From the IMG/VR virus record IMGVR_UViG_3300036770_003386, positions 20,139 through 84,138 of that record: a DNA stretch of 64,000 bases; one strand, written 5' to 3'. Under the pieces are notes generated by a model. The model searched no databases. It had not been told where the DNA came from and saw only the letters and a list, made by a program, of their open reading frames with translations. Position numbers and translations under genes: made by a program. Below, piece after piece: positions 5,129 to 64,000 of this stretch (position 1 is the first letter of the stretch; each line of letters begins with the position of its first letter). The DNA is from a virus.

Positions 5129-6209
5129 TGGGCATTTGAAAATCAACATCCACTTTGTCATACAATTCAAGAAAGGATTGCTTGGTTTCGTCGTCAAATC
5201 GATTGACGCAAACTTGGATTGCCTTTGCCTTGTCTTGGAAGATGCTGTAGGCACGGATGATGTGAACCAGACGACGGGTGCTGATGATTTCCTCAATACC
5301 ACCATCGTAGAAGGTCTTGCGGATAATGTCTGCCCAGTCCACCAGACGCTTACAGAAGTCGCGGTCTTCAACACCCAAGTCCAGAGCAACCCCTTCAAGG
5401 ATCTTCTGCTCGGTTGCAGGGGCAGGATAGGACTGCTCAAAGGTCACAGGAAAACGCTCCAGGAATGCCTCATTGAGCACATTGGTGCCGATGAATCGCC
5501 CATCATCACTACCCTTACCTTTCGTGTTGGCAGTAGCAAATACGTTGAAACCTTCAGCAGGTTTTACAAACTTACCAATCTTCTTAAGGAAAACACCTTT
5601 ACCTTCTAGCACGGATTGTAGACAAAGGATTTTGTTAGAGGCAAGGTCAATCTCATCCAGCAGAAGGATTGCACCTCGCTGGAGTGCTTCGATGACTGGA
5701 CCATTATGCCAAACAGTAGCACCATCCACAAGACGGAAACCACCGATCAGATCGTCTTCATCAGTTTCAATAGTAATATTGACACGAATCAGTTCACGCT
5801 TAAGTTGAGCACACGCTTGTTCAACACTGAACGTTTTACCATTACCCGAAAGACCCGTAATGAACGTCGGATAAAAAAGATTGGACTGAATAATTTTCTT
5901 AATATCGTTAAAGTTACCAAACTTGACGAAGGTATCATCTTTATCAGGAATGAGGTTTTGCTCAACTGTAGGGAGAACAGAAGGTGCTTGATAAGAACGC
6001 TCAATCTCTTCAACACGTTCTTGAGTCACTTCCAGGTTCCAACGTCCACGATCAGTTTTAAACTTTTCAAGGCGATTAGTGACAGTGGGATAAGAAATGC
6101 CTTTGGAGGCACAATATCCACGAACATCACCAGAAGAGAACTCTGTACCAAACAAAGATTTGAGGTCGGAGATGAGTTGTTCGTCGGTCACAGAAATTTT
6201 ACGAGGCAT
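5106..6209 (-). CDS. cobS: CobS-like MoxR AAA+ ATPase
   Basis: GLSGNGKT Walker A, LLLDEID Walker B, ATANTKG, LNEAFLERF. Confidence 0.88.
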   Translation of the reverse strand: MPRKISVTDEQLISDLKSLFGTEFSSGDVRGYCASKGISYPTVTNRLEKFKTDRGRWNLEVTQERVEEIERSYQAPSVLPTVEQNLIPDKDDTFVKFGNFNDIKKIIQSNLFYPTFITGLSGNGKTFSVEQACAQLKRELIRVNITIETDEDDLIGGFRLVDGATVWHNGPVIEALQRGAILLLDEIDLASNKILCLQSVLEGKGVFLKKIGKFVKPAEGFNVFATANTKGKGSDDGRFIGTNVLNEAFLERFPVTFEQSYPAPATEQKILEGVALDLGVEDRDFCKRLVDWADIIRKTFYDGGIEEIISTRRLVHIIRAYSIFQDKAKAIQVCVNRFDDETKQSFLELYDKVDVDFQMPIDEQQTN

Positions 6210-61754: not shown

Positions 61755-61942
61755 TGAGATGAATTCAATACTAATTCCTTTGATCGTAGAACTTCCTCAT
61801 AAGAAAGATCGTTTTTCTTTGAGTCATCTGTGATTGAAAGAAACTCTGATATCATTTTCCATGTTAAATCAAACTCATCTTTTGTTAATGAGTGATAGAT
61901 GCACTTGTCTTTTAAGTATATGTGATAGAGTGTTTCAGTCAT
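61751..61942 (-). CDS. 63-aa hypothetical protein
   Basis: Overlaps upstream AbrB-like gene; similar to 60777..60938. Confidence 0.6.
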   Translation of the reverse strand: MTETLYHIYLKDKCIYHSLTKDEFDLTWKMISEFLSITDDSKKNDLSYEEVLRSKELVLNSSH

Positions 61943-62132
61943 TTTCTTTTTCTGAAAGTATAATTTCGTTGCCGTCGATTGTGAATTCTATTTCTGTATC
62001 CTCATACCATGAGAGATCGTTTATAATCCACTCAGGTATTCTAACATAATATTCACCATTTATTGGATCGACCTCTAGGGGTCTAAAATTTTCCGGAGAT
62101 TTTTTTTTCATGTAGGGGATTTCATTTTTCAA
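61935..62132 (-). CDS. AbrB/MazE-like swapped-hairpin DNA-binding protein
   Basis: YYVRIPEWIINDLSWYEDTEIEFTIDGNEIIL. Confidence 0.6.
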   Translation of the reverse strand: MKNEIPYMKKKSPENFRPLEVDPINGEYYVRIPEWIINDLSWYEDTEIEFTIDGNEIILSEKEND

Positions 62133-62375
62133 TTTTATATAGGAATTCTTTTACTTTGGGGTCAGTACTATACTTCCGGAATTTTTTGTTTTTGAAGTAT
62201 TGTTTGCCTTATATTTACTTTTATAGATTGACAAGGTTCCTTGACTTATTATACGCCCCCCCATGACCCCCCCGCTTACGCCATCGCGGCGCAAAGGCAC
62301 TGCCAAACACGAACGAACGCAGGCGATTAAGGCGGCAGAGTATCAACAACTGCCGCCCCACTAAGTGTAACTAAC

Positions 62376-62702
62376 TCATGAGAAGTAGGTGCCCACGATG
62401 ACAGTTCCATCGTAGCAGTATTTCATAACTACCCCACTGAAATAGGTGTCGGAAGTGTAACCATCCCACCCATAAAGGTGTTCGTGAGGTGCAGCAATGA
62501 CCCGAATAAAGTCACTCACAGAATACCAAACTCCGCGATACTTGAAGAACTCAGTGTCATCAAACTCGTCATCAGTAAGGTAATCAAACTGTTTGCGGAG
62601 TTGACTATACAAACTGCCGGGGTTCAATGCACCGAATCCAGGCAACCATTGCCCCATAGTGCAATCGCGTGGGATGAAATTAGACTTGATTGTGACAGTC
62701 AT
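62376..62702 (-). CDS. hypothetical protein
   Basis: Likely start MTVTIKSN at 62702; FFKYRGVWYSVSDFI, YFSGVVMKY. Confidence 0.6.
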   Translation of the reverse strand: MTVTIKSNFIPRDCTMGQWLPGFGALNPGSLYSQLRKQFDYLTDDEFDDTEFFKYRGVWYSVSDFIRVIAAPHEHLYGWDGYTSDTYFSGVVMKYCYDGTVIVGTYFS

Positions 62703-62766
62703 GATCGGAAAGTGTAGGGTGAAAGGTGGAAAGAAAGGGCGGAAGATTGCCGCCCTTAAGTGTAAC

Positions 62767-63186
62767 TCAGAGACCGAACTTTTCTCTGCAGATAGGACCA
62801 ATCCCCAACTCGATTGAAAGGGAGTTAGTTAACTCTCTGCCGCAACATGAGCAGGAACCTGTATTCTGCCCGTAAAGTTTAGCGGCAGAGTAAGGATCAG
62901 CGGCGACAGATTGCACTCGCTTGATGAGATCAATCTCACCCAAATTTGTGGCGTTCGATGTAATCCAACCCAGGTAAATGTTACTCAGTGTGCCCCACTG
63001 ATTGACCTCTTTATCGTGAGAGAAAACATAACATTTACCAGCATACTTGCTGGGTTTAACTATAAAGTTTGTGAAGCGCATTGTGATCCTTTTCAGACCA
63101 CGATTCTGTGCCTCTTCGATTGCATTTATGATCCCGCTAAAGTTGTATTGAGCGGGCGCATTGTGACGGATGATAGGATGGCGCAT
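62767..63186 (-). CDS. DUF6011-like zinc-finger protein
   Basis: C-terminal CSCCGRELTNSLSIELGIGPIC. Confidence 0.7.
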   Translation of the reverse strand: MRHPIIRHNAPAQYNFSGIINAIEEAQNRGLKRITMRFTNFIVKPSKYAGKCYVFSHDKEVNQWGTLSNIYLGWITSNATNLGEIDLIKRVQSVAADPYSAAKLYGQNTGSCSCCGRELTNSLSIELGIGPICREKFGL

Positions 63187-63249
63187 TGTGCTTACCTTTG
63201 GTGTGGTTTGTGTGAAATAGGGAGGCGATTGTGCCTCCCTCAGTGTAAC

Positions 63250-63495
63250 TTACCAGGCGTCAGATGTGAACACCCGATAATAGTCTAGACCATTAAGTTG
63301 ACAGAAGTGTTCTGCCAACTCCTCAAATACCTCATCCCCGATGTCATCAAACTCATCAGAATCAACAACGAAACTGACAACTTTTGCGCTAGGGATGACA
63401 TAATGAAACCCGCGATCTGAGGGGTGGAAATACTCTACAACCGTTTCGATTTGCGTCGGGTTGGTTGTATGCTGCCCGACAATGAGAGTAGTCAT
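63250..63495 (-). CDS. hypothetical acidic protein
   Basis: 81-aa ORF bounded by 9-mer repeats. Confidence 0.55.
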   Translation of the reverse strand: MTTLIVGQHTTNPTQIETVVEYFHPSDRGFHYVIPSAKVVSFVVDSDEFDDIGDEVFEELAEHFCQLNGLDYYRVFTSDAW

Positions 63496-63532
63496 AGGTC
63501 TTGAAAGTGTGGGGTGAAAGTGTAACTAAATG

Positions 63533-63619
63533 GCGAAACTTGAAACTATTAAATACGGCGACGGGTGATCAGTACACCCGCGCTCCGCCCCGTCGCCGTA
63601 TTCGGTTTTCAAGGTTCGC
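63533..63619. ncRNA. candidate structured RNA / long hairpin element
   Basis: Perfect 14-bp inverted repeat 63552..63565/63589..63602 nested in a 12-of-13 outer stem 63533..63545/63607..63619. Confidence 0.35.
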
Positions 63620-63798
63620 TCCGCTCACTGTAACCGATCGGCAGCGATCCCACAAGCGCCAAACGGTATCACCCGATACCAAACGGCAAACTCATCTCAT
63701 AAGCGATTCTGATTGGTCAGGTCTTGACAGATCGGGCGATGCCGTGGTATCTGCTGCAGCGATTGAATGTTAATTATAATTAAACAACGATTGCAGAA

Positions 63799-63994
63799 TA
63801 TAAAGAATCAAGAACCGATTGCAATTGCACCTGAATTAGAATTAAGAACCGATTAGGATTGCAAACTATAAAGAATAACTGTCCTTTGGGAAGTTCATTG
63901 TGATTAGAATTAACCACACCACTGACTATAAGAATCACAATGAACTTCAGAAAAGAAAGTATAAAGAATTACAAACTCGAAAAGTATAAAGAAT
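63799..63994. repeat. cluster of TATAAAGAAT direct repeats
   Basis: Exact at 63799, 63867, 63960, 63985; variant TATAAGAAT at 63927; AAGAACCGATT occurs twice. Confidence 0.7.
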
Positions 63995-64000
63995 TAAGAT

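Follow-up and report, generated by a model that had tools for sequence, protein, structure and literature searches.

Hairpin joints between small genes at a fixed locus of T4-like cyanophages: candidate PeSL-like linkers at the seams of gene exchange

Promoter-early stem-loop (PeSL) cassettes have been described in the T4-type phages RB49/phi1, T4/PST, and KVP40/nt-1 (Arbiol 2010, PMC2839356; Comeau 2014, PMC4122927). The stems of these cassettes have the pattern GGGG...CCCC (PMC2839356). In S-PM2, PeSLs were judged to be sparse (Puxty 2015). The array described here resembles this system in its short conserved intergenic units, in which a GGGG...CCCC stem-loop comes immediately after the preceding ORF. 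Similarly, the units are placed in tandem between small orphan genes of a hyperplastic region, the genes differ between relatives, and the breakpoints are found in the units. An initial annotation of this DNA had compared the array with the regulatory cassettes of T4-type phages. The comparison was apt with respect to the stem, its position, the hyperplastic region, and the breakpoints.

The array was found in IMGVR_UViG_3300036770_003386, a fragment of a T4-like cyanomyovirus. The whole record is 121,851 bp long and is estimated to be 57% complete. The neighbouring proteins are 83-90% identical to their counterparts in S-SRM01, S-SKS1, and P-SSM2. The array is the end of an island of small minus-strand genes, and this island runs about 8 kb past the window, which is the whole stretch of 64,000 nucleotides that was analysed. 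The GC content of the island is 45-49%, compared with 35% for the record. The parts of the array and its borders are as follows.

63797..63824, minus strand: sigma-70-like promoter candidate (TTGCAA, 16 nt, TATATT) from a consensus scan, in the last copy of an AT-rich repeat
63533..63782, minus strand: GC-rich non-coding element, about 250 nt long and free of ORFs; its long terminal hairpin ends 29 nt before box 1
63519..63527, minus strand: box 1, a copy of the 9-mer that lacks a hairpin and runs directly into the C/A-rich leader of gene 1 (63496-63518), 23 nt before the ATG
63250..63495, minus strand: cassette gene 1, 81 aa, acidic, of no known family; the sole relative found is 90% identical, on metagenome contig L148
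63219..63250, minus strand: joint 2, box 63242-63250 with an 8-bp GC hairpin at 63219-63240; the first A of the box is part of the TAA stop of gene 1
62767..63186, minus strand: cassette gene 2, 139 aa, with a C-terminal DUF6011 motif (Pfam E 2.6e-14)
62735..62767, minus strand: joint 3, box 62759-62767 with an 8-bp GC hairpin at 62735-62757; the first A of the box is part of the TGA stop of gene 2
62376..62702, minus strand: cassette gene 3, 108 aa, family 15, the most widely shared cassette
62328..62372, minus strand: terminal joint, box 4 (62364-62372) with a longer hairpin; another box-like hexamer lies in its 11-nt loop
62299..62317, minus strand: 19-nt motif that follows the terminal hairpin; it matches S-SRM01 at 95% identity over 19 nt and is conserved across many contigs

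The initial annotation had reported four exact minus-strand copies of a 9-mer within 1.2 kb, and these were confirmed at 62364-62372, 62759-62767, 63242-63250, and 63519-63527. Their placement was also as reported: two copies overlap the stop codons of the 81-aa and 139-aa genes, one (box 4) lies 3 nt past the stop codon of the 108-aa gene, and one precedes the first gene. The leader common to genes 1 and 3, which had been described as having no Shine-Dalgarno sequence, is present, and a GGAG-type Shine-Dalgarno is missing from it. The hairpin of joint 3 is followed by a T/C-rich tail and this shared leader (62703-62734). The leader of gene 2 (63187-63218) is its own and carries a weak AAGG. 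A hairpin-less first box opens every array and was likewise found in L010, L031, L040, L055, and L148, where it runs into the leader with the box 20-30 nt before the ATG.

Both ends of the array are fixed. The non-coding element always heads the array; it has DNA similarity to S-SRM01 and many contigs and belongs to no Rfam family. Because the promoter candidate at 63797..63824 points into this element and the array, it is likely the main start of a predicted array transcript. At the other end, S-SRM01, L040, L054, L078, and L148 have arrays that finish with the same terminal hairpin. The 19-nt motif is the fixed right-hand border of the array, and the next gene is AbrB/MazE-like (61935-62132). 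A -10-like hexamer was observed on the 3' side of the 11-nt loop of the terminal hairpin (window 62328-62360), and it reads TATACT or TACACT in relatives. This single-stranded -10 might be a start signal for the downstream genes.

The frequency of the 9-mer was compared with background, as the initial annotation had proposed. Four copies were found where chance predicts 0.62 for the 64-kb window, and no shuffle out of 100 gave as many as four. The rest of the 121,851-bp record contains one extra copy, on the opposite strand at genome position 103071. In S-SRM01, three clustered copies were found in the syntenic array and four were scattered elsewhere. The 9-mer is local to one array in this phage and in S-SRM01, and it is not a genome-wide signal.

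As a conserved unit, the 9-mer proposed earlier is a real core, but the true unit is longer. Alignment of 38 joints from this phage and its relatives gave a 13-nt box, T-N-A followed by GTTACAYT and TA, with T at position -3 and A at position -1; these joints were picked by a match to the box, which fixes the core columns by selection and builds in part of their uniformity. The T-N-A of the box is usually the stop codon, and where the stop codon lies further upstream, the box still reads TTA. A dyad symmetry of the 13-mer (5-3-5) was considered and was not relied on, since position -2 varies freely (A, T, or G) with no compensation.

The stem begins 0-2 nt past the box, and the GC hairpin is followed by a T/C-rich tail. 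The GC-rich stems of the joints have 7-10 pairs, with AATC-like loops of 3-8 nt. The presence of three different GC stems in the window, as claimed earlier, was borne out by RNA folding energies of -16.6, -13.7, and -20 kcal/mol and z-scores of -4.2, -3.0, and -2.7. The MAFFT alignment of the joints was structurally too inconsistent for pair counting, and the stems were therefore compared directly by script. There are 30 distinct stem sequences among 35 joints. At least seven perfect pairs were found in 27 of the 35, compared with 0.05 expected from shuffles, a contrast inflated by the preselection of these joints for stems of six pairs or more. Selection acts on the structure of the hairpin. 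A strict terminator scan (at least five T in the eight nucleotides after the stem) flagged no site in 62200-64000, because the T tract is interrupted by C.

Relatives of the locus were collected in several ways. Joints at the same locus were found in Synechococcus phage S-SRM01, in about 30 uncultured viral contigs, and in one metagenome contig. S-SRM01 is the only one among 50,697 GenBank phage records to have a joint. A pattern scan of viral contigs returned 62 loci, about 30 of which have the stop codon, box, hairpin, and leader in that order. In addition, 36 loci were gathered via a conserved 252-aa gene, independently of the motif, and 5 of the 36 contain joints. The order of the locus in relatives is AT-rich repeats, the 250-nt non-coding element, the cassettes, the terminal hairpin, the AbrB-like gene, and the 252-aa gene. 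The position of the array is constant wherever the flanking sequence of the relatives is long enough.

S-SRM01 has a syntenic island with a four-gene array, and its four proteins are unrelated to the three of the window. The DNA matches to S-SRM01 in the array region are limited to one joint, the upstream element, the terminal hairpin, and the 19-nt motif. Joint 3 is 81% identical over 70 nt to an S-SRM01 joint between unrelated genes, and there is a second short match.

The gene content between the joints was then compared. The 485 ORFs upstream of the anchor gene were clustered into 160 families, and the arrays are written here as the order of these families.

This phage: 79-10-15
L010: 22-62-15-10
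L055: 22-45-21-10
L031: 4-10-21-16
L054: 22-89-90-15
L040: 22-84-15
S-SRM01: 4-59-57-12

The order in L010 indicates that genes 2 and 3 are reversed relative to this phage. Gene 2 was found at other array positions in L010, L031, L055, and L078. The closest relative found is metagenome contig L148, which retains gene 1, joint 2, joint 3, and gene 3. In L148, the stretch from the 3' end of hairpin 2 to box 3, where this phage has gene 2 and its leader, holds a different 63-aa gene instead, and an additional cassette is inserted at box 4. Blocks of homology to this array stop at 63252/63250 (box 2) and at 63222-63208 (3' end of hairpin 2). Further block ends were found over the stop codon and box 3 (62770-62765) and where box 4 ends (62364).

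The initial annotation had called for the gene order between repeats to be compared in relatives. The result is that the joints are kept, the ORFs are replaced, inserted, or re-ordered, and the homology ends at the joints, which indicates that the joints are probable recombination linkers. An exchangeable gene array, as first suggested, is supported by the comparisons with S-SRM01, L010, and L148. The alignments show, at the level of sequence, that the joints are seams of gene exchange at one fixed locus in one T4-like cyanophage lineage. An identical hairpin allele was found after upstream genes that differ, and four different hairpin alleles were found before a single gene; together these indicate crossovers on both sides of the stem. 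The shared cassettes are only about 80% identical at the DNA level. This indicates that the exchanges are old, and no recent exchange event was seen among the shared cassettes.

The cassette proteins were searched with Pfam and PHROGs, and nothing other than DUF6011 and unnamed families was found; gene 2 is the only one in a named family. The structure model of gene 2 is confident (pLDDT 89), with no convincing match among solved structures (Foldseek E-value 0.05 and Z 3.4 at best). The model of gene 3 is of low confidence (pLDDT 64) and gave no fold match. Longer proteins bearing the C-terminal DUF6011 module of gene 2 were observed in L037, L044, and L072.

Several other features of the island were recorded. 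The cassette arrays have 41-49% GC in L001, L002, L010, L031, L040, L054, L055, and L060, compared with 26-39% for the genes just downstream. Since the arrays are GC-rich relative to the downstream genes in every phage, the compositional island is a feature of the lineage and not a recent import here. A permissive-threshold Rfam search of the whole island returned two tRNAs and nothing more. Directly upstream of the non-coding element, an AT-rich block (window 63790-64000, continuing to L001 3900-4200) contains about seven copies of a 13-nt ATTCTTTATAC-like repeat, two of them inverted. The block is kept in many relatives, and some joints have its words after their hairpins. Possible identities of the block are a promoter cluster, a set of iterons, or a replication origin. 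Arrays of a CTCGACGAGA-like 10-nt repeat were found between small island genes at L001 4330-4450 and 7800-7880 (minus strand), and CACACA-rich spacers come after each of them. These arrays are conserved across relatives and are also present in L002, L031, L054, and L148. Two paralogous GC-rich non-coding elements of about 120-200 nt, at about 5400-5520 and 7240-7440 of L001 (minus strand), have their first and last words in common; they lack an ORF and an Rfam match, and copies exist in S-SRM01 and L046. A 143-aa ORF resembling an HNH-type endonuclease (L001 10175-10786, minus strand) overlaps a tRNA-Met and is followed by a tRNA-Leu(TAA). Endonuclease-like genes were also observed at either border of the array in relatives, as an annotated HNH gene in S-SRM01 and as a 104-216-aa family in L054, L098, L080, and L047.

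The joints are best explained as PeSL-like regulatory joints that double as recombination linkers, forming a cyanophage variant of the T4-type PeSL cassettes. The probability of this reading is put at roughly 0.65. The box, the GC hairpin, and the T/C-rich tail would together form a joint of about 45 nt between single-gene cassettes, and a cassette would consist of a leader, an ORF, and the stop codon built into the box. Exchange would most simply be carried out by the phage's own homologous recombination. Each cassette may be insulated by its hairpin, as either a leaky intrinsic terminator or a protector of RNA ends. Transcription of the whole array could begin at the promoter candidate at 63824-63797 and pass through the 250-nt leader.

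What the box does within this regulatory-linker explanation is more tentative. The favoured assignment would be a -10-type start signal, with a hexamer T-A-Y-A-Y-T ending 1-2 nt before the stem, and it is given somewhat less than an even chance. A start 7 nt downstream of the box would fall inside the 5' arm of the hairpin, so the transcript would escape the terminator that halts the upstream ones. The hexamer before the stem (TACACT here) has the T-A-N-N-N-T form of the bacterial -10 element with its variable middle. In the joints gathered independently of the motif, it reads TACACT, TACATT, TATACT, TATAAT, or TACAAT. Such a hexamer lies at most 4 nt from the stem in 37 joints, compared with 14 expected, related joints being counted that are not independent events. 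The variation from TACACT to TATAAT would favour the -10 reading. Similarly, the hairpin-less units would favour it, as their box is at the place expected for a -10, 20-30 nt before the ATG. Against it, the near-invariance of all eight core bases exceeds the needs of a -10 element, and the 38 joints have no conserved -35-like signal upstream of the box. Most of the remaining probability for the role of the box would go to an RNA-level signal and a protein-binding site. Two further assignments were rejected. The box cannot be a -35 hexamer with a -10 located 17 nt on, since the stem occupies that spot, and antisense promoters at the joints were discarded, as a scan of 62200-64000 gave no promoter-like plus-strand site.

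A second class of joint in the record was considered in this context. It has a AACTGGCAC-type box at the stop codon, then a hairpin, and a TATAAT 30-31 nt on, in about 20 copies. Copies on the minus strand, for example at genome positions 120198, 117695, 116888, 116456, and 115537, have the extended box GACAsTT, 4 nt, AACTGkC. This box is roughly dyad-symmetric, often with a TGA stop within its left half, and the symmetry suggests a dimeric factor. The AACTGGCAC-type joints of T4-like cyanophages may correspond to the "novel early regulatory element" reported in Doron 2016 (ISME J).

If the 9-mer were a diverged AACTGGCAC box, recognised by the factor, from host or phage, that reads the AACTGGCAC box, it would serve the widespread early-type promoter of the phage as an upstream, operator-like half, and the true -10 would lie past the hairpin. 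Boxes of both types are found at the stop codon directly before a GC hairpin, contig L046 has spellings intermediate between them, and many relatives have TACACT or TATACT 27-30 nt past the box, which matches the geometry of the AACTGGCAC class. However, no T-A-N-N-N-T hexamer is present at that distance after boxes 2, 3, and 4 of the window, where only 21-36 nt separate the stem from the ATG. The dyad-symmetric left half of the AACTGGCAC class is missing from the 9-mer class, and box 1, 23 nt before the ATG, is too close for an upstream operator. This reading is considered unlikely. A box that acts at the RNA level alone is given a low probability, about one chance in seven. It would require a single transcript, for which a plausible promoter upstream and a 250-nt leader are present, with the box beside the stem cleaved or bound (e.g., by host RNase E) to give cistrons with a protective hairpin; shuffling would be a side effect. 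Host RNase E is exploited by a marine cyanophage, and this was counted in favour of an RNA-level role. The box rigidly adjoins the stem, with an A/U-rich ACUUA right before a stable stem, and the lack of a -35 signal also agrees with this role. The hexamer, however, varies in the T-A-N-A-N-T manner of a -10, and box 1 and the other hairpin-less boxes have no adjoining stem.

The layout of the array also recalls an integron, with a fixed entry platform, a hairpin-less first site as in attI, promoterless-looking cassettes that each close with a site and a hairpin as in attC, and combinatorial content. A dedicated capture platform would use the structured non-coding head and box 1 as the entry site, the box and hairpin as the cassette site, and a special terminal hairpin, with a putative nuclease or recombinase acting at the 13-nt box. 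If true, this would be an integron-like system without an integrase. The identical hairpin alleles after different upstream genes indicate crossovers inside the 10-15 nt that make up the box, and homing-endonuclease-like genes are often inserted at the array borders of relatives; both fit such a platform. The breakpoints, however, are found at several places within the joint. No tyrosine or serine recombinase (PF00589, PF00239) was found in this record, which is 57% complete, or in the complete S-SRM01 genome. As the initial annotation had stated, the 9-mer does not fit the integron core GTTRRRY: the fifth base is C and not a purine. There is no inverse core site, and the repeats flanking the hairpins are direct, not inverted. 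The joint stems are short, with 7-10 perfect pairs, compared with the imperfect 57-141-nt folds of attC. The integron reading was rejected on the recombinase and the core-site mismatch, and the broader capture platform is improbable. The restriction of the 9-mer to one locus would also agree with leftovers of local duplication, in which ordinary gene-end hairpins were copied with their flanking bases and the box has no function. This is likewise improbable, as the box is unchanged where stems and neighbouring genes have diverged or been replaced, across phages whose shared cassettes have no more than about 80% identity.

T4-like cyanophages rank with the most abundant aquatic viruses, and small orphans make up most of their variable genes. 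The locus shows joint by joint how phages exchange such small genes, each packaged as a self-contained unit. The 13-nt box with its hairpin can be used to fish cassette genes from metagenomes, and with the cultured phage S-SRM01, transcription, processing, and circle formation at the joints are accessible to direct study.

Compared with described elements, the joints resemble Rho-independent terminators in their GC-rich stem of 7-10 pairs, their 3-8-nt loop just past the stop codon, and their pyrimidine-rich tail. Rho-independent terminators have a run of T, whereas the T/C tail of the joints fails a 5-of-8 T rule and an invariant box precedes the stem. The joints resemble the AACTGGCAC class in the box at the stop codon, the GC hairpin that comes next, the C/A-rich leader without a Shine-Dalgarno, and the location between small genes of the same island. 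The AACTGGCAC class differs in its dyad-symmetric box, its near-perfect TATAAT, and its dispersal over the genome; the 9-mer class is local and has neither the symmetry nor the TATAAT in the window. The literature searched contained no description of the 13-nt box or of the locus.

The differences from PeSLs are in the promoter, the ribosome-binding site, and the setting. In PeSLs, a sigma-70 promoter (-35, about 17 nt, -10) follows the stem, and the unit ends in a Shine-Dalgarno and the start codon at its 3' end. A consensus scan found no sigma-70 promoter after the three stems of the window, because only 21-36 nt remain before the ATG, and in the joints only a -10-like hexamer precedes the stem. 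The joints mostly have no Shine-Dalgarno (gene 2 has AAGG only). Recombination mini-circles and promoter and terminator activity have been measured for PeSLs (PMC2839356). With the defining promoter and Shine-Dalgarno missing, the joints are probably a variant of PeSLs and not a strict member. Unlike PeSLs, they have a 13-nt box ahead of the stem with the stop codon built in, and they are found at one fixed locus whose head element and terminal hairpin are conserved. The PeSL idea, so far based on coliphages and vibriophages, would thus be extended to cyanophages with a different joint design, in which a stop-codon box comes before the hairpin, no -35/-10 pair comes after it, and the head and tail of the array are fixed.
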